Shown here: piece after piece, positions 15,963 through 45,975 of the stretch
Layout: each line of letters begins with the position of its first letter
Numbering within the stretch: the stretch's first letter is position 1
NCBI RefSeq assembly: GCF_004010195.1
Contig: NC_057754.1
Location: 3,846,925 to 3,910,924, forward strand
From: Chiloscyllium plagiosum
Taxonomy: Eukaryota
Reading direction: 5' to 3'
DNA: 64,000 nucleotides
Position numbers and translations under genes: made by a program
Notes under the pieces: generated by a model
Databases searched by the model: none
What the model saw: only the letters and a program-made list of their open reading frames with translations
What the model was told of the DNA's origin: nothing

Positions 15963-16116
15963 TTTGGCCTGTGGGATTATTGCTCGTTCGGCTGGACTCT
16001 TCCAGAATCCCAAAAGGATCTGCTCATGCGACGGAGTGACCCTGTGGGAGGAGCGGGATCGGCCAATCGCAGGGACGGGTCGCAAGTCCCAGGATCCGCC
16101 CACGGCAAACCTCTGA
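15963..16116 (+). CDS. CCS: CCS last coding exon (domain III, CXC motif)
   Basis: ag|t completes the Arg codon; [50 protein letters not shown]. Confidence 0.96.
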
Positions 16117-16698: not shown

Positions 16699-16704
16699 AA
16701 TAAA
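16699..16704 (+). terminator. Probable CCS polyadenylation signal
   Basis: AATAAA about 580 nt after the stop codon, just before a tandem repeat array. Confidence 0.55.
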
Positions 16705-17800: not shown

Positions 17801-18398
17801 AAAGTGCTATCTTTCAGGATGTGACATCCAACCAACACTCCGTCTGCCTTGTATCGTGTGGGTGGAAGCTCCGTCAGCTCCGAACTGCAAGTCTTGTTGC
17901 TCATGGTGAGGAATCCTCCCAGGATGTGAGTACCTGAGACTACTTCCTGAGTAAATCCTGTTCCTGTTTGTGGCGTCACGTTCCCTGCATTCAGAAACGT
18001 GACCCGATTCCAAAAGTTGTTGGCGATCTGTCATTGGCCGTGGTGCCAGGTAAATGCAAGCGAAAATCTTCTGGGAGAGATGTTGATGGATAACACTGCG
18101 GTCGTTTTCTCTCATCGCCTAAATTCGTGCCCCCCCCCCTCCCATATCAGGGGCTGCCCGAGCCAGCAGATGTCAGGCTTGAACTGCAAGGGGTAAGCTT
18201 AATAAAGCCTTCGGAATAATTGGCACCAAGCATTCCCACTTCTCCGTAATGATATGTCAGCCCCGCTCCCCATCAATCCCAGCTCAGTTTGTGAATTGAC
18301 TCTGCGCTGATGTTAACCCCTGCCAACAGTAGGCTGGTGTTTGCCAGTTCCTCCATCTCTTCTCAAGGGCAGATTTAACCCCTCCCCTTCTCCTCGAC

Positions 18399-18453
18399 TT
18401 GCTCAATCGTTGCACAACCTGACCTCGGGCTGGAGGGAAGGGAACGCTATAAA
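18399..18453 (+). promoter_or_regulatory. Proximal promoter of the avidin-like gene: two C/EBP-like sites, a TGACCT half-site and a TATA box
   Basis: TTGCTCAAT (18399), GTTGCACAAC (18409), TGACCT (18420), TATAAA (18448-18453); Kozak ATG (gcaccATGg) at 18503. Confidence 0.6.
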
Positions 18454-18502
18454 TGCAGATGGGCTGCAGTTCCGGGTCTGAGTGAGTGTCTCAGGCAGCA
18501 CC

Positions 18503-18574
18503 ATGGACATTAAGCTGCTCCAACTGGCTCTCGCAATCTCCTTGTTTGTCTCCAGCTCTTCCTGTGTGGAATTG
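18503..18574 (+). CDS. Avidin-like gene exon 1 (signal peptide)
   Basis: MDIKLLQLALAISLFVSSSSCVEL, a hydrophobic signal peptide; phase-0 donor gtaaat. Confidence 0.85.
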
Positions 18575-18739
18575 GTAAATCGACAGGGTTCAGCCGAAAG
18601 GGCTCCTGCAGGAGACACAGACCCGGGTTGGCCAGGGGGTTTTTGTGGTGGTCAGGCTGGTGTATGTCGCTTAGATTTCGACCCTGGCTTTCAAACAGGG
18701 TGGCCAGGCAAGGTGTAGGGAGAGGAGAGATGTCAGATA

Positions 18740-19088
18740 GTGTCCCTGTTCCTGATCACTGTCCAGTGATCTCCAGGGTTAGAGAGAGAGGGGGAATCAG
18801 ACAGGGTCCCTGCTCCTGATCATTGTCCAGTGATCCCCAGGGTTAGAGGGAGAGGGGGATTCAGACAGGGTTCCTGCTCCTGATCACTGTCCAGTGATCT
18901 CCAGGGTTAGAGAGAGAAGGGGAATCGGACAGGGTCCCTGTTCCTGATCACTGTCCAGTGATCCCCAGGGTTAGAGGGAGAGGGGGATTCAGACAGAGTC
19001 ATTGTTCCTGATCACTATCCAGTGATCCCCAGGGTTAGAGGGAGAGGGGGATTCAGACAGGGTTCCTGCTCCTGATCACTGTCCAGTG
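18740..19088 (+). repeat. ~62-bp tandem repeat in intron 1 of the avidin-like gene
   Basis: (cctgatcactgtccagtgatccccagggttagaggggagagggggattcagacagggttcctgct), about 5.5 copies. Confidence 0.9.
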
Positions 19089-19130
19089 GAAATCAGTCGA
19101 TGATGTTTAAATCTCTCACTTTCCTATCAG

Positions 19131-19326
19131 GTAACTTCCCTGTCTGGCTGCTGGGTGAACGAACTCCACTCTACAATGCAGATCGGGGTGTCCGACTCTG
19201 GGTTAATAACTGGTTCGTACGTCTCCAATGTGTCAGGATCTACACAGCCTGCAAAAGGGAATGTCACTGGGTATCAGCAAAGTCTCAGCAATCCCACCTT
19301 CGGGTTTGTGGTGAAATGGATCACAG
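19131..19326 (+). CDS. Avidin-like gene exon 2
   Basis: ttcctatcag|...|gtaacc, 196 nt; VTSLSGCWVNELHSTMQIGVSDSGLITGSYVSNVSGSTQPAKGNVTGYQQSLSNPTFGFVVKWIT aligns to avidin SLTGKWTNDLGSNMTI...TGTYITAV...PTFGFTVNW. Confidence 0.92.
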
Positions 19327-20651
19327 GTAACCCTGAATATTTATTTAACCAATCGATTGTCCTGAAGCAACAGTCGGTCTTTCGTTTATACAAATTTTAC
19401 TCTTCACCTCTCAACAGGTCCAAAGGCGCAGGAGCAGGCCCGTTAGCTGTTCAATCCTATTACCCCATTCAATAGGATGATGGCTGATCATTCCTCACTC
19501 AGTCTCCTGTTGCTGCTTTCTCTCTTTGTACCTTTTGATCCATTTAGCCCCAAGAACTCAATCGAACTCCATCACGAGAACATTCGCTGTTTCAGCCCCA
19601 ACCCCTTTCTGTGACAGAGAATCCCACAGGCTCTCTTCCCCCACCCTCCCCCCCCCCCCCCCACCACTCTCTGGGGGAAGACATTTCTCCCCATCTCAGT
19701 CCGAAATGGCCCCACCCCATAATCCGTAGACAGTGACCCAGCAAGTGACTATCCCCCCTGGTCCAGGAACTCCCCACATATGTTCGAGACACCACCCACG
19801 CCCTCCACCTCCTGCAAGACTTCCGTTTCCCCGGCCCCCAAACGCCTCATCTTCACCATGGATATCCAATCCCTCTACACCTCCATCCGCCAAGACCAGG
19901 GCTTCCAAGCCCTCCGTTTCTTCCTCTCCCAACGTCCCCAACACTCTCATTCGTTTGGCCGAACTGGTCCTCACCCTTAACAATTTCTCCTTCGAATCGT
20001 CCCACTTCCCCCAGACCAAAGGGGTAGCCATGGGCACACGTATGGGCCCCAGCTATGCCTGTCTCTTTGTTGGCTACGTAGAACAGTTGATCTTCCGTAA
20101 TTACACCGGCACCACTCCCCACCTCTTCCTCCGCTACATTGATGACTGCATTGGCGCCACCTCGTGCTCCCGCGAGGAGGTTGAGCAATGCATCAACTTC
20201 ACCAACACATTCCACCCCGACCTTAAATTTACCTGGACCATCTCCGACACCTGGCTCCCCTTCCTGGACCTCTCCATCTCCATCAGTGACGACCGACTTG
20301 ACACTGACATCTTCTACAAACCCACCGACTCCCACAGCTACCTGGATTACACCTCTTCCCACCCTACCTCTTGCAAAAATGCCATCCCATATTCCCAATT
20401 CCTCCGCCTCCGCCGTATCTGCACCCAGGAGGAGCGGTTCCACCATAGAACACACCAGATGGCCTCCTTCTTCAGAGACCGCAATTTCCCTTCCCACGTG
20501 GTTAAAGATGCCCTCCAACGCATCACGTCCACATCCCGCACCTCCGCCCTCAGACCCAACCCCTCCAACCGCAACAAGGACAGAACACCCCTGGTGCTCA
20601 CCTTCCACCCTACCAACCTTCGCATAAACCAAATCATCCGCCAACATTTCC

Positions 20652-21089
20652 NNNNNNNNNNNNNNNNNNNNNNNNNNNNNNNNNNNNNNNNNNNNNNNNN
20701 NNNNNNNNNNNNNNNNNNNNNNNNNNNNNNNNNNNNNNNNNNNNNNNNNNNNNNNNNNNNNNNNNNNNNNNNNNNNNNNNNNNNNNNNNNNNNNNNNNNN
20801 NNNNNNNNNNNNNNNNNNNNNNNNNNNNNNNNNNNNNNNNNNNNNNNNNNNNNNNNNNNNNNNNNNNNNNNNNNNNNNNNNNNNNNNNNNNNNNNNNNNN
20901 NNNNNNNNNNNNNNNNNNNNNNNNNNNNNNNNNNNNNNNNNNNNNNNNNNNNNNNNNNNNNNNNNNNNNNNNNNNNNNNNNNNNNNNNNNNNNNNNNNNN
21001 NNNNNNNNNNNNNNNNNNNNNNNNNNNNNNNNNNNNNNNNNNNNNNNNNNNNNNNNNNNNNNNNNNNNNNNNNNNNNNNNNNNNNNNNN
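20652..21089. other. Assembly gap
   Basis: N run. Confidence 1.
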
Positions 21090-21113
21090 TCCACGCTTCA
21101 GGCTCACTGCCTT

Positions 21114-21150
21114 TATTCCTGATGAAGGGCTTTTGCCCGAAACGTCGATT
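21114..21150 (+). ncRNA. Minimal hammerhead ribozyme motif (Penelope type)
   Basis: CTGATGA-A-GGGC-TTTT-GCCC-GAAAC-GTC; helix I is weak in this copy. Confidence 0.6.
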
Positions 21151-21397
21151 TTACTGCTCCTCGGATGCTGCCTGACCTGCTGTGCTTTTCCAGCACCACT
21201 CTAATCCAGACTCTGGTTTCCAGCATCTGCAGTCATTGTTTTTACCTAGAAATGCTGTCCAGCCAAGCTAAGGTTATGTGTCTGTTACGACTTTTCAATT
21301 CTGTCGCTGTGGGATTAAACCCCAGGGCTTGGTCGGCATCATCAGAAGCTGTGCTCTTGAAATTTGTATTTCTGCTTTGATTCCTTGTCACTCACAG

Positions 21398-21521
21398 CCC
21401 CAGGCAGTGTCAGCGTCTGGACTGGACAGTACTTCGTGATTAACGAAAAGGAGACCTTGATGACCATGTGGTTACTCAGGCGAAGTGTTTCGACTTCAGA
21501 AGACAACTGGGGGGCAACCTG
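21398..21521 (+). CDS. Avidin-like gene exon 3
   Basis: cacag|...|gtaat; (A)PGSVSVWTGQYFVINEKETLMTMWLLRRSVSTSEDNWGAT(W) versus avidin STTVFTGQCF...EVLKTMWLLRSSVNDIGDDWKATR. An alternative in-frame acceptor starts the exon at 21404. Confidence 0.92.
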
Positions 21522-21611
21522 GTAATGATTTTCACAAATAAACTGTCTCTCTCAGGCCCGGGTCCTGTCAGAACCTAACTGAGTCACAGTCAAGCTGGTT
21601 ACTCTGTCTTC

Positions 21612-21930
21612 AGGGTGGCTCAGTGGTTAGCACTGCTGCCTCACAGCACCAGGGTCCCAGGTTCGATCCTAGCCTCGGGCGACTGTCTGGGTGGAGTTTG
21701 GACATTCTCCCCGTGTCTACGTGGGGTTTCCTCCGGGAGCTCCCACAATCTAAAGATGTGCAGGTTAGGGTGGATAAGCCATGCTAAATTGTCCCATAGT
21801 GCCCAGGGATGTGCAGGTTAGGGTGGATTGGCCGTGCTAAATTGCATTAGTCAGAGGGAAATGGGCCTAGGTGGGTTACTCTTTGGAGGGCCGAAGGGCC
21901 TGTTTCCACACTGTAGATAATCTAATCTGT
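21612..21930 (+). mobile_element. HE1-like V-SINE in intron 3 of the avidin-like gene
   Basis: tRNA-like head, V-domain, aatct tail. Confidence 0.8.
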
Positions 21931-22339
21931 AGCCTAGGGGAGAGATGGTGGGAGAGATCACAAAAGCCTAGAGTCTGGGACAGTATTGCATTTCTAGACA
22001 TCCCAACTCCTCCCCACCCTCTTTCATCAAAAAGAAGCACAATCATTTTCAAGCTCGCAAAACAATCTATATTGTCCCCAAACCAGCACTCACACAGCAC
22101 TCATGCCAGAGTGCCTGCATCTAACACCTCGTTGGTATAAAGCTCTTGTGATATCAAGGTTTGGGCTGGAAATGCAGATAGCTCCAGGAAGACATGATCA
22201 CATTAACACATACTCAGCCTCGAGCGATCACTTCAGGGTTTGATCCAAACACCTCCGCTCTGGGACTAACACAAACTTTTCATTTTAAGGTAATCTAGTT
22301 CACTACTTAGCTTTCCTTATGCAGGAATTAGTCAGCTGT

Positions 22340-23290
22340 CTAACCCCATGCTGTCCCTGTCCTGGGAGTGTTTGATTGGGGGCCAGTGTACAGAGAGCTT
22401 TACTCCATATCTAACCACGTGATGTACCTGTCCTGTGAATGTTTCATTGGGGGTCAGTGTAGAGAGAGCTTCAGTCTGTATCTAACCCCGTGCTGTCCCT
22501 ATCCTGGGAGTGTTTGATAGAGGGGAAAAGGATGGAGGCAGCTTTACTCTGTATCTAACCTCGTGCTGTCCCTGTCCTGGGGAGTTTTTGATGAGGGGGG
22601 ACAGTGTAGAGGGAGCTTTACTCTGTATCTAACCCCGTGCTGTCCCTGTCCTGGGGAGTGTTTGATGGGGGACAGTGTAGAGGAAGTTTTGCTCTGTATC
22701 TAACCCCATGCTGTCCTTATCCTGATGAGCGGGGGACAGTGTAGAGAGAGTTTTACTCTATATCAAACCCCGTGTCCTGGGGAGTGATTGATACAGAGGG
22801 GACAGTGTAGAGAGAGCTTTACTCTGTATCTAACCCCGTGCTGTCCCTGTCCTGGGGAGTGTTTGACGGGGGACAGTGTCGAGGGGGATTTAATCTGTAT
22901 CTAACCCCGTGCTGTCCCTGTCCTGGGAGTGTTTGATGGGGATACAGTGTAGAGAGAGCTTTACTCTGTATCTAACCCCGTGCTGTCCCTGTCCCTGGGG
23001 AGTGTTTGATGGGGGTACGGTGTAGAGAGAGCTTTACTCTGTATCTAACCCCGTGCTGTCTCTATCCTGGGAGCGTTTGATGTGGGGATAGTGTAGAGGG
23101 AGCTTTACTCTGTATCTAACCCTGTGCTGTCTCTATCCTGGGAGCGTTTGATGTGGGGATAGTGTAGAGGGAGCTTTACTCTGTATCTAACCCCGTGCTG
23201 TCTCTATCCTGGGAGTGTTTGATGTGGGGACAGTGTAGAGGGAGCTTTACTCTGTATCTAACCCTGTGCTGGGGAGTGTTTGATGGGAAC
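22340..23290 (+). repeat. ~68-bp minisatellite in intron 3 of the avidin-like gene
   Basis: Same unit as the array at 4988. Confidence 0.9.
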
Positions 23291-23312
23291 AGTGTCTCTC
23301 TGGTTATTCCAG

Positions 23313-23439
23313 GACTGGGATGGATGTGTTCCATCGTAACGACAAGGCTTGTAAACATGACGACGGTGGGACTGTCTCTCCGGATGCTGGATCTGGCACA
23401 GGCCCCAAAGAATTCGAATCCTTAGTGCGGATTCCCTGA
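23313..23439 (+). CDS. Avidin-like gene exon 4 with extended C-terminus
   Basis: ttccag|g completes the Trp codon in phase 2; TGMDVFHR (avidin VGINIFTR), then NDKACKHDDGGTVSPDAGSGTGPKEFESLVRIP*; ATTAAA at 23487-23492. Confidence 0.82.
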
Positions 23440-24138
23440 ACCCGGGAAGGTCTCTCAGCCTGTGTCATCCTCCAAAACAGAATTTCATTAAAGAACCGAG
23501 TGGTTAAATACTTGTGGGCTGCATGTTCCTGCGTTCTCTCGAGTATTTCACTAACGTGGGTGATCAGTGACATGAAAACGTACAGGGTAACAGGGTCCCC
23601 TTTGGGAACGGGAGAGTACAATAGGAATGGGAGAGATGAGGTGGATGGATTACTTCAATACACAGTGAGAGAGAAATAAGGCTGGGCTTTACACCAAACG
23701 CCACAGACAATCCCAAACCGGGCACAGGAACAGAAGACAGGCATAACAACAACAACCACCTGCATTTGTATAGCACCGTTCCTGCACCACCACCACCACC
23801 ATCATGAGATGGTTAGAAAACAAGAAACCAAGCAGTCAGGTCCAAAGGGGTAGGTTTCCAGGGCACATCATCTCCCACAGAGGTGAGCGGGGGGGGTGTG
23901 GGAAGGGAGGGCACAGAGAGGTTCCGGGGGGAGACCACGCTAGGGCCTGTTCACCCCGAACCGATCACGTTTTGCAAATGTGCAGGAGGCCAGAAATAGG
24001 CATACTGCAAATGGTTGTAGGGACCAAAGGACAGCGCTGGAGGGGGTGACAGAGACAGGGAGGGGGTGTAGGGGCCGGAGGGGAATCTGATGGTGGTGAG
24101 GGGTGAGTGAGGGGTAACGGTAGGCAGTGAGGGCGATA

Positions 24139-27039: not shown

Positions 27040-27695
27040 ATGAATTTATTGTCACGTGTACCGAGACACAGTGAAAAGCTTTGTCTTGCGAGCAATACAG
27101 GCAGGTCACAGAGTTAAGTAGCGTAGATAGTAAATAATAGGTAAACAGCAGCAAAAACAAAAACACAGGGACAGGCGAATGTTTGTGAGTCCATTCAGTA
27201 TTCTAACAGCAGTAGAGTAGAAACTGTTTGGAAACCGGCTGCTGTGTGTGTTCTGGCTTCTGTACCTTCTCCCTGAGGGTAGAAAAACATTGCCAGGGTG
27301 GGCTGGATCTTTGAGAATGCTGGCGGCCTTTCTTTGACAGCGAGCCTGGGAGATGGATTCTACAGATGGGAGGTTGGCCTTTGTGATTGTCCGGGCCGAG
27401 TTCACCACTCTCTGTACCCGTCTCCGATCCTGAATGGGACAGTTGCCGTACCGGGTAGTGATACATCCAGACAGAATGCTCTGGATGGCGCACCTATAAA
27501 AGTTGGTAAGGGTATTCGCCGTCATGCCAAATTTCCTCAGCTGCCTGAGGAAGGAGAGACGTTGTTGGGCCTTTGTAACCAATGCGTCCACATGAAGAGT
27601 CCAAGAAAGCTTGTGGATGACCCACTCCCAGGAGCCTGACACTCTCCACTCGTTCCACCTCTGTGCTGTTAATGTGTAGGGGGGGGCATGAGTAA
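27040..27695 (-). mobile_element. Rex1/Babar-like LINE 3' fragment
   Basis: KAQQRLSFLRQLRKFG...NFYRCAIQSILSGCIT...LPSGRRYRS...NSFYSTAVRILN. Confidence 0.75.
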
Positions 27696-28249
27696 CCACC
27701 TTCAGCTACTTCACCAGTGGCCTTCCCTCCATCATAAGGTCAGATGTGAGGGATTGATCGTTGCATAATGTTCAGCATCATTTAAACTTCTCAGTCACTG
27801 AAGCAGCTCAGATCCACATGCAGTGAAGTCTGGGCCCCCTACTGACTTGAGTTGATAATTGACAAGAAACATGCACACTATAGAAATGTGGTTATAAAGA
27901 TGTGCAACATACATTCGGAAATTTGGATTTATACTTTAGAGGGCTTTGGTTTCAATTCTGTGAAGATTACCTTTTTTTTAAATGTGGTCAAAAACTCATT
28001 TGGATCAGTGAGCTAAATACATAATTTCCAATACCGTCTTCACTTTATTTAAGTGTCTGGCAGGATAATTGATTAAATGTTTATACTTGGCAAAAGTGAT
28101 GAAGGGCTTTTGCCCGAAACATCGATTTTCCTGCTCCTCGGAGGCTGCCTGACCTGCTGTGCTTTTCCAACACCACTCTAACCTCAATGTTTATACTGCT
28201 GAGTTTATGACAAAGAAACTAGGCCGAGGGCTCCTTAGATTTGACTTCA

Positions 28250-42215: not shown

Positions 42216-42492
42216 ATGGATGTTTTTGACCTCATCCCTTTGTGACATCCCTGAGGGACACTAAGAGTTAGATTGAGACAGAGGGAGAGAACCAAACGTA
42301 TTTTGGAAACAGCAAGAAATTTCCTTCCCCAAAGTTGTGACAGAAGTTTTTGTTTTGTTTGTTATTAACCTCTCCCAAGGGGAGATGGAGCTCATTCTGC
42401 AACCCAGCTCCTTGTGCCCAGCTCGCTCCAATGTCCTGAAGACCCAGGTGAAAAGCTGGTGGCCCACTGGGAGCTGGTGTGCCCACTGAGCC

Positions 42493-42823
42493 ATGGCAGA
42501 GCACCGTCCACACTGTGACCTCAAGGCCTGCTATTTCCTGAAGCTAACTCTCTGCTTCCTGGTCTACGTGCTCTTCGGCACGGTGGTCTTCTCTGCTGTT
42601 GAGCAGCCTTGGGAGGTGCAGATGAGGAAGGAGTTGGTCGAGATGAAGTCCACGTTCTTACAGCAGCATGGCTGCATCCCAGAGCCAGAGTTGGACGCTC
42701 TTCTGCACAGGGTGATCACCGCCAGCAACTATGGTGTCTCGGCCTTGAGAAATGCTTCGGATGACCACAACTGGGACTTGGCCTCATCACTCTTCTTCGT
42801 CAGTACTGTGCTCACCACCATTG
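42493..42823 (+). CDS. KCNK7: TWIK-subfamily two-pore K+ channel exon 1 (M1, cap, P1)
   Basis: gagccATGg; M1 helix, cap Cys (HGCI), NAS sequon, WDLASSLFFVSTVLTTI-G|gtaaag. The symbol comes from the position directly downstream of MAP3K11 on the same strand, as in human; the sequence alone supports only KCNK1/6/7. Confidence 0.85.
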
Positions 42824-42959
42824 GTAAAGAATAACCCTCTCTCTCTCTCTCTCTCTCTCTCAGTCCTCTCACTGTTCATCTCCTCCTCCTCTCCCATCCC
42901 TCACCTTCACACCCTCTATCCTGGCCTGCTGTACCTCTCATCTCTTCCCTCACCCCTCT

Positions 42960-43450
42960 TTCTCCCTCTCTCTCCACCACACTATCTCTCCTCTCTCTCA
43001 TCCATCTTTCCCTCTCTCTCCACCACACTATCTCTCCTCTCTCTCATCCATCTTTCCCTCTCTCTCCACCACACTATCTCTCCTCTCTCTCATCCATCTT
43101 TCCCTCTCTCTCCACCACACTATCTCTCCTCTCTCTCATCCATCTTTCCCTCTCTCTCCACCACACTATCTCTCCTCTCTCTCATCCATCTTTCCCTCTC
43201 TCTCCACCACACTATCTCTCCTCTCTCTCATCCATCTTTCCCTCTCTCTCCACCACACTATCTCTCCTCTCTCTCATCCATCTTTCCCTCTCTCTCCACC
43301 ACACTATCTCTCCTCTCTCTCATCCATCTTTCCCTCTCTCTCCACCACACTATCTCTCCTCTCTCTCATCCATCTTTCCCTCTCTCTCCACCACACTATC
43401 TCTCCTCTCTCTCATCCATCTTTCCCTCTCTCCCACACCACTATCTCTCC
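42960..43450 (+). repeat. 47-bp pyrimidine-rich tandem repeat
   Basis: (ccaccacactatctctcctctctctcatccatctttccctctctct)n, about 10 near-identical copies. Confidence 0.92.
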
Positions 43451-44683
43451 GCCCACCCTATTCTCTCTCACCCCTCTCTCACTACTCTCTGTCCTCTGTC
43501 TCCCTCCCCTCCTCTCTCCCGACTGTCCCTCACTCCTGGTATGTTTGCTGTTATTATTCATTGCATTGAGTGCAGGGAGTTGGGAAGTCATGTTGCGGCT
43601 GTACAGGACATTGGCTCGGTCACTTTTGGAATACTGCATTCAATTCTGATCTCTCTGCTATAGGAAAGATTGAAACTCGAAAGGGTGCAGAAAAGATTTG
43701 CAAGGATGTAGCCAGGGTTGGAGGGAATGAGCTACAGGGAGAGGCTGAACAGGCTGGGGCTGTTTTCCCTGGAGCGTCGGAGGCTGAGGGGTGACCTTAC
43801 AGAGGTTTATAAAATCACGAGGGGCAGGGCTGAATTGACTATTCTTTTTGAAATTCTCTTGAGGGATTTGGCTGACTGCACCAGCATTTATTACCAATCC
43901 CATGTTGCCTAGAGAAGGTGATATTGAGCTGCTTTCTTGAACAACTGCAGTCCATGTACTGTAGGGACACCCACAATACCATTAAGGAGGGAACTCCAGC
44001 ATTTTGACCCAGTGAAGGAACAACCGATATATTTCCAAATCTGTATGATGAGTGGCTCAGAGGGGGGATTGATGGGGGGGGGTGGCGTTCCTAAGTATCT
44101 GCTGCCCTTGTCCTTCCAGATGGAAGTGGTCGTGGATTTGAAACATCTCAAGACATATGGCAAATTTCTGCAGTCCATCTTGTGGATGGCACACACTGCT
44201 GCTACTGAGCGTCAGTGGCAGGGGGAATGGAGACTTGTGGATGCGAGGGTTGCTTTGCGCCTGGGTGGTGTTGAGCTTCTCGAGTGTTGATGGAGATGCC
44301 CCACCCCCCCATCCAGCGGCAAGTGCAGAAGATTCCATCACACTCTTGACTCCTACCTTGTTGATGGGAGGGACAGGCTTCGGGGAGTCAGGGGGTGAGT
44401 CATTCACTGCAGGATTCCTAGCTTCTGAGTCGCTCTTGTAGCCAGTATCTGGTCAATGTTGAGTTTCTGATGATCCCGAAGAGTGGAGAGGGGGGGGATT
44501 CAGTAATGGGTAACGCCATTGAATGTTAGGGGCCGGTGGCAAATTGGTCTCTTATTGGAGATGGGCAGAGGCTGGCATGACTGTTTCTGTGAGAAAGTGA
44601 GGACTGCAGGTGCTGGAGATCAGAGCTGAAAAATGTGTTGCTGGAAAAGCGCAGCAGGTCAGGCAGCATCCAAGGAGCAGGAG

Positions 44684-44721
44684 GGATCGACGTTTCGGGC
44701 ATGAGCCCTTCTTCAGGATTC
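44684..44721 (-). ncRNA. Minimal hammerhead ribozyme motif
   Basis: Minus strand: gaatc-CTGAAGA-A-GGGC-tcat-GCCC-GAAAC-GTC-gatcc. Confidence 0.6.
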
Positions 44722-45004
44722 TCCTGCTCCTTGGATGCTGCCTGACCTGCTGCGCTTTTCCAGCAACACATTTTCAGCTCATGACTGTTTCTGTGCTGTA
44801 CATCATTTCTGCTCTGGGGTTCTGCTGAGGGCTGATTCAGGGGCAGATTTGCAGCGTTAGACGAATTGGGAATATGTTCAGAGTGATGGAGATAGAACTG
44901 CAGAGTGGGGTTCATGGCCCAGCGTGTCTCTTGTCGGGGTCTCTGTGAAAGGGGTGGCGTTGGCAAATCCTTCCTAACCTATTATTTCTCTCACTTGTCT
45001 CCAG

Positions 45005-45400
45005 GTTACGGGCACAGTGTTCCCTTCACCAGTGGAGGCAAAGCCTTCTGTATACTGTACTCAGTGTTGGGGATTCCCATCACCCTTCTCCTGCTCACCA
45101 GCGTGGTGCAGCACCTCATGTTCTACGTGCACTGGGTGCCCATCACGTACATCCACACCCACTGGCGCCTGGCCATGCCAGTGGTGGCCCGGATCCATGC
45201 CCTGGTAATTGGCAGCGTGGTGGCTGGTTGCTTCTTCCTGATCCCGGCGGCAGCGTTCACGGCTTTGGAGGAGGACTGGGATTACGTCTCGTCTCTCTAC
45301 TTCTGCTTCATCTCCCTCAGCACCATCGGCCTGGGGGATTATGTTCCTGGCAATTCCCGTTACCCCAGCCTTCGGAACCTCTACAAGGTCGGCATCGCAT
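45005..45400 (+). CDS. KCNK7: TWIK-subfamily K2P channel exon 2 (P1 end, M2, M3, P2)
   Basis: ccag|...|gtgagt, 396 nt; GYGHSVPFTSGGKAFCILYSVLGIP...SLYFCFISLSTIGLGDYVPG. Confidence 0.9.
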
Positions 45401-45404
45401 GTGA

Positions 45405-45975
45405 GTCATGGAGACGTACAGCACAGAGACAGCCCCTTCGGTCCATCCCGTCCATGCCAACCCAAAATCCTAACCTAATCTAGTCCCATTTGCCAGCCTT
45501 TGGTCCATATCCCTCCAAACCCTTCCTATTCATATACCCATCCAGATGCCTTTTTAATGTTGTCATTGTACCAGCCTCCTCTGGCAGCTCATTCCATACA
45601 CGTACCACCCTCTGCGTGAAAAAGTTGCCCCTTAGGTCTCTTTTACACCTTTCCCCTCTCACCCTAAACCTATGCCCCTCTAGTTCTGGACTCCCCGACC
45701 CAGGGAAAAGACCTTGTCTATTTATCCTATCCATGCCCCCTCATTACTTTGTAAACCTCTGTAATGTCACCCCTCAGCCTCCGACGCTCCAGGGAAAACA
45801 GCCCCAGCCTGTTCAGCCTCTCCCTGTCGCTCAGACCCTCCAACCCTGGCAACATCCTTGTAAATCCTTTCAAGTGTCACAATGTCCTTCCGTTAGGAAG
45901 GAGACCAGAATTGCACGCAATGTTCCAATAATGGTCCAACCAATGTCCTGTATAGTGGCAACATGGCCTCCCAAT
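45405..45975 (-). mobile_element. CR1-like LINE 3' end inserted just after the K2P exon 2 donor
   Basis: RDLRGNFFTQRVVRVWNELP on the minus strand. Confidence 0.85.

Follow-up and report, generated by a model that had tools for sequence, protein, structure and literature searches.

Two bodies of work bear most directly on the avidin gene described here, which lies in a 64,000-nt stretch of the genome of the whitespotted bamboo shark Chiloscyllium plagiosum (contig NC_057754.1, positions 3,846,925 to 3,910,924 of the forward strand; hereafter the window, whose first letter is position 1). A 2026 survey catalogued 130 fish avidins, 18 of them chondrichthyan, and described two chondrichthyan clades with conserved biotin-binding residues, the disulfide cysteines being lost in the second; it gives the biochemical properties as still to be determined (PMC13425791). 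Zebavidin lacks an equivalent of avidin F72 and binds biotin at 3.7 nM, and its substitutions T77S, F79W and N118D are common among avidins (PMC3811995). The window gene appears to be an intact, expressed avidin gene of the second clade, and its product is very likely a secreted biotin-binding tetramer (probability about 0.85) in which a cysteine pair joining strand 1 to the C-terminal tail probably replaces the canonical disulfide.

Gene and protein are already annotated and catalogued. When exon 2 was used to look for homologues, it retrieved P0001, a protein of 172 aa equal letter for letter to the spliced product. This is RefSeq XP_043538978.1, an avidin-like predicted model from C. plagiosum (172 of 172 residues identical, no difference) that the survey lists in its Tables S1 and S2. 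In Table S2 it appears as C. plagiosum_2, a clade-2 label (PMC13425791), and in our analysis it lacks the canonical cysteines and groups with the other clade-2 sequences. The first-pass annotation, made by a model from the sequence alone, had presented the gene as hidden and novel, which it is not. Its remark that it was aware of no characterised shark avidin fares better in part: our literature searches, from whose coverage subscription journals were largely absent, yielded just PMC13425791 on the subject and no functional or biochemical study of one, although the protein itself had been catalogued.

Splicing of the four exons (Table 1) yields an open frame of 172 aa, equal to the protein originally proposed, through three GT-AG introns in phases 0, 1 and 2 of 556, 2071 and 1791 nt, and the four-exon structure follows the family pattern shared with chicken avidin, xenavidin and zebavidin (PMC3811995). 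The whole protein matches Pfam Avidin (PF01382) over positions 1-116 of the 116-position profile (E 9e-29; 100.6 bits against a curated cut-off of 24). Taken alone, exon 2 (E 2.7e-13; profile 1-66) and exon 3 (E 2.7e-10; profile 70-108) match consecutive parts of the profile, which argues that the exon chain did not arise by chance. Coding exon 4 is also present in models from C. punctatum and H. ocellatum, and full-length orthologue models in two related sharks are 87% and 84% identical to the bamboo shark protein. The leader reaches a hydropathy of 2.36 in its best 11-residue window against 1.25 in the mature part, and a hydrophobic leader was seen, on the same basis, in 9 of 9 proteins checked; it is a probable signal peptide and the protein is probably secreted. 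The mature chain is acidic (calculated pI 5.5), unlike chicken avidin, which is basic. Coordinates, splice sites, phases, TATA box and ATTAAA signal thus all stand as the first-pass annotation gave them, and its placement of the product as a probably secreted cartilaginous-fish avidin with an intact pocket is supported.

Four public runs (X1, X5, X6 and X20; RNA status guessed for three) were aligned to window positions 18300-22330, and contigs joining exon 2 to exon 3 are present in 2 of the 4. In X1 a 594-nt contig matches both exons with 0 mismatches and skips 2071 nt at GT..AG, and X5, a run from a relative, has a 413-nt contig with this same exon 2-exon 3 join at GT..AG. Run X6 covers repeats only, with no coverage of the exons, and no reads were placed from X20, which is hence no test. 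The X1 contig carries 85 nt on the exon-1 side, with the same depth seen on exon 1 (calculated start near 18490), and 187 nt beyond exon 3 which, if they belong to exon 4, give a calculated end near 23498, just past ATTAAA. Of the junctions first proposed, 19326/21398 is therefore joined in X1 and X5, while 18574/19131, absent from the joints listed, and 21521/23313, outside the aligned stretch, are supported indirectly. No intronless avidin copy that could explain the spliced contigs was found in the genome search (10 of 10 candidates scored). One X5 contig over exon 1 (window 18300-18574, + strand) extends 5' of the TATA box, past 18300, and may represent a longer 5' untranslated region, an upstream start or read-through from CCS.

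The modelled fold and the ring-binding side of the biotin pocket are those of an avidin. The AlphaFold2 model (mean predicted local distance difference test, pLDDT, of 84.7) places eight strands within residues 30-139 at high confidence, followed after about residue 150 by a low-confidence tail, and the top Foldseek matches are xenavidin and chicken avidin (PDB 2UYW, and 1VYO and 1AVD) at root-mean-square deviations of 1.4-1.8 Å and 40-42% identity, the best being xenavidin 2uyw at 1.4 Å over 119 columns. The eight biotin contacts named in the first-pass annotation (N12, L14, S16, Y33, W70, W97, L99 and W110) are all identical in the alignment to chicken avidin, as are V37, S75 and M96. T35S, T77S, F79W and N118D are conservative, and the last three give the Ser, Trp and Asp found at these positions in zebavidin, with which the shark protein also shares the absence of an F72 equivalent. 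Zebavidin (PDB 4BJ8) shares only 29% identity with it in the structural alignment, and keeps the canonical disulfide (PMC13425791). Since the ring-binding residues match those of avidin or zebavidin, the altered ligand that had been offered as an alternative to biotin is unlikely.

Modelled as four copies of residues 23-147, the protein forms an avidin-like tetramer with a score of 0.91, against 0.00 for the best of 3 controls; contact agreement between runs is at least 95% and partner pLDDT at least 89. Among microbes, 21 of 30 solved pairs but none of 23 single chains attain the score mark; among eukaryotes, 17 of 29 solved pairs and none of 30 single chains do so, yet only 1 of 7 eukaryotic pairs lacking an older solved relative. 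As avidin tetramers are solved structures, the pass may reflect memory of them. The same reservation applies to the position of W127 (avidin W110), which in the modelled tetramer lies in the interface with pocket residues 36, 58, 116 and 135.

The protein also differs from chicken avidin in its cysteines. In the bamboo shark sequence T26 and Y101 occupy the columns of avidin Cys4 and Cys83, leaving no canonical disulfide, and Cys31 and Cys144 are present instead, the latter ahead of the extra low-confidence tail of about 28 residues. From 158 proteins we obtained 163 avidin domains (in 151 proteins); motif parsing failed for 53, which were set aside, so that 110 remained. Of these 110 domains, 13 carry a strand-1 cysteine (G-C-W; Cys31 here), and every one of the 13 has a second cysteine at most 7 residues past strand 8 and lacks both avidin Cys4 and Cys83, whereas a tail cysteine is found in 2 of the other 97. 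In 12 of the 13 the tail cysteine aligns with the Cys144 column; in the remaining one the terminal residue is a cysteine, four positions short of that column. All 13 carriers are sharks or rays and fall in a single tree clade (support 88/87), so that they count as one evolutionary event and not as 13. The clade-2 rows of Table S2 of the survey, read by eye, show G-C-W in 6 of 7 and the tail cysteine in 7 of 7 (3 of the 7 are also among our 13), and in all 11 of its clade-1 rows the canonical cysteines are present and G-C-W is not (PMC13425791).

From these sequence patterns we consider it probable that clade-2 avidins have replaced the Cys4-Cys83 bond by one between Cys31 in strand 1 and Cys144 just past strand 8, which would staple the ends of the barrel together. 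Strands 1 and 8 are adjacent in the avidin barrel, so the two cysteines could meet. In P0013, a relative from the white shark, the model gives the six C-terminal residues, tail cysteine included, a mean pLDDT of 90, a value that has no control and that fits a docked tail. The mature chains of two ray proteins, P0004 (Mobula birostris) and P0005 (Hemitrygon akajei), contain four cysteines each (31, 109, 141 and 145), and the two further ones, at the same end of the barrel, could form a second new disulfide. The survey reports the clade-2 disulfide cysteines as missing, and a search of its accessible text and supplements for Cys and disulfide turned up this loss alone (PMC13425791) and not the strand-1/C-tail pair, which is the addition of the present analysis. 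Literature searches with the coverage given above found no description of a replacement pair.

In a tree of 28 named rows (a short alignment of 134 columns, midpoint root) the 13 clade-2 proteins form one clade, at a support below the star threshold of the tool. The bamboo shark gene groups there with a coelacanth avidin (97/96), in the part of the tree that holds xenavidin and avidins of birds and snakes (95/92). As the alignment is short and zebavidin and chicken avidin are not among the rows, the tree does no more than suggest orthology with the xenavidin and bird avidin side. The clade-2 relatives named in the survey (C. carcharias 2A/2B, S. canicula 2A/2B, S. tigrinum 2 and P. pectinata 2) are 45-56% identical to the bamboo shark protein where aligned or searched, and C. 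carcharias 2A is reported to lack the canonical cysteines as well (PMC13425791). The genome search gave at least 4 avidin exon matches at no fewer than 2 loci, namely the window gene and contig C24. The latter holds a second avidin gene, of clade 1 and with canonical cysteines (G000:C24:22469317-22475950; L007, L008), which is placed far off in the tree, with tuatara and annelid proteins, and shares the positions of introns 2 and 3 with the window gene. Exons 2-4 of this second gene match XP_043570489.1, which Table S2 places in clade 1 (PMC13425791), and zebavidin probably belongs with the C24 gene. Further copies near the window gene were rejected: when 8 clade proteins were compared with the window by tblastn, the four exons alone were found, all other matches having E >0.08. 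Several proteins in the collection (P0014, P0016-P0018, P0020, P0022 and P0023) carry a leader and two tandem avidin domains, in many cases with a hydrophobic C terminus, and may be membrane-anchored; two of them are named from annelids (Ridgeia and Owenia).

We propose that the leader would direct the protein into the secretory pathway, where residues 30-139 would fold into the eight-stranded barrel and four subunits would assemble into an avidin tetramer, with Trp127 predicted to cap the pocket of a neighbour. Each pocket would bind biotin through the conserved ring contacts, while a Cys31-Cys144 bond would stand in for Cys4-Cys83 and hold strand 1 against the end of strand 8. Free biotin might then be held in an extracellular fluid or secretion, limiting microbes, which is the weakest step and stands at about even odds against a carrier role.

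Several observations weigh against this picture. The valerate side of the pocket differs from chicken avidin (A39G, F72T, S73A and R114W), and a sequon at N57 (window 19227-19235, residues 57-59) lies between two pocket-lining residues; it is found in 1 of 13 clade members in its column and is not in the two closest orthologues. The glycine at avidin position 15, which the survey calls highly conserved, is replaced by His37. As a special change His37 was rejected, since the column varies across the clade (G in 6, N in 4, H in 2 and S in 1 of the 13 members). One catshark paralogue, S. canicula 2A, is without the strand-1 cysteine. Zebrafish with an avidin knockout were reported to be unimpaired both in development and in the face of S. 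agalactiae (PMC13425791), which weakens the defence role, though zebavidin probably belongs to the other clade. As the equivalents of F72 and S73 are lost and zebavidin, without F72, binds in the nanomolar range, it is a fair guess by analogy that the affinity for biotin would be below that of chicken avidin, perhaps nanomolar like that of zebavidin.

Weakened valerate-side contacts would also fit a ligand meant to be released, as in a biotin carrier of the chicken yolk BBP-A type that binds with moderate affinity and delivers to yolk, embryo or uterine fluid, and liver-made yolk proteins of lower affinity are described in the avidin family (PMC3811995). Such a carrier would be compatible with biotin binding and concerns the role only. 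The clade is present in Mobula, Hemitrygon, Carcharodon, Mustelus, Pristiophorus and Heptranchias. These genera are live-bearing, so that the job of clade-2 avidins is not limited to laid eggs and an egg-white role cannot be general. Egg-laying skates and the chimaera have clade-1 rows only in Table S2, although absence from that table is weak evidence (PMC13425791). Avidin and xenavidin match the shark protein better in sequence than BBP-A does, and the gene falls on the xenavidin and bird avidin side of the tree, points that leave the carrier a tenable second choice with less than an even chance.

A diverged avidin-like protein that mainly binds something other than biotin is a good deal less probable. 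In its favour, exon 2 changes fast: the X5 contig differs from exon 2 at 27 of 188 nt but from exon 3 at only 7 of 131, the 20 exon 2 differences listed hit 13 codons and change 9 residues, and some clade members have lost N12 or L99. None of the 9 listed changes, on the other hand, falls on the eight named contacts, and across the clade S16, W70, W97 and W110 are invariant (13 of 13), with N12, Y33 and D/N118 conserved in no fewer than 12 of the 13. That the gene is a pseudogene, or that its splice sites line up by chance, is highly improbable: beyond the retroelement fragment and the assembly gap in intron 2 we found nothing in its favour, whereas the open frame, the canonical splice sites, the spliced contigs, the intact orthologue models and the two intron positions shared with the C24 paralogue all speak against it.

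The gene lies directly downstream of CCS, as the first-pass annotation stated: the last coding exon of CCS matches the human protein and its stop lies 2386 nt 5' of the avidin ATG, and two earlier CCS exons match Sod_Cu, below the cut-off. A functional link between CCS and the avidin gene was considered and rejected, since adjacency is all that the window offers and CCS has poly(A) signals of its own. In Heptranchias perlo, P0015 (XP_067831661.1) is named TMEM223 and ends in a whole clade-2 avidin domain, probably through read-through or an annotation join of two neighbouring genes; in the bamboo shark genome TMEM223 is on a separate contig (C89928). An assembly gap of N at 20652-21089 cuts the retroelement fragment in intron 2, which looks Penelope-like and of which many related copies are seen in the public runs aligned. 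Farther downstream are exons of a two-pore potassium channel (42490-45480, + strand; best match human KCNK1, E 5e-50, the paralogue assignment being tentative) and a Pfam ALKBH8_N match (27109-27705, - strand; E 6e-13), a domain that in fish genomes is often a retroelement remnant.

Table 1. Features of the avidin gene and its surroundings, in window positions.
Feature	Position	Strand	Details
TATAAA box	18448..18453	+	~55 nt 5' of ATG
Start codon ATG	18503	+	context GCACCATGG
Coding exon 1	18503..18574 (72 nt)	+	hydrophobic leader, probable signal peptide; residues 1-24; phase-0 donor
Exon 2	19131..19326 (196 nt)	+	strands 1-5; Cys31; N34, L36, S38, Y54, S56, W87 (avidin N12, L14, S16, Y33, T35, W70); sequons N57, N68
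Exon 3	21398..21521 (124 nt)	+	strands 6-7 and W110 loop; S93, S95, W97, W114, L116, W127 (avidin S75, T77, F79, W97, L99, W110)
Coding exon 4	23313..23439	+	strand 8 (D135, avidin N118); Cys144; low-confidence 28-residue tail; stop TGA
ATTAAA poly(A) signal	23487..23492	+	
CCS last coding exon	15963..16116	+	C-terminal CXC motif; stop 16114-16116; human CCS 225-273, E 7.2e-22; outside avidin gene
AATAAA, likely CCS poly(A) signal	16699..16704	+	~1.7 kb 5' of avidin TATA box
64-bp minisatellite, intron 1	18717..19088		
Reverse-transcriptase fragment, intron 2	19742..20650	+	RVT_1 E 2e-4, below cut-off; 303-codon open frame
71-bp minisatellite, intron 3	22339..23271		

The first-pass annotation rebuilt the gene correctly from raw sequence, and its discovery value is little, the gene being annotated and the protein catalogued. 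The probable replacement disulfide is a cheap, testable structural point, mainly for avidin engineers, and if true would provide a natural avidin scaffold with a disulfide arrangement that we have not found described. For anyone wishing to characterise an avidin from a cartilaginous fish biochemically for the first time, the bamboo shark protein is a sensible choice, and such a study would bear on what vertebrate avidins do, given that the zebrafish knockout is without phenotype.

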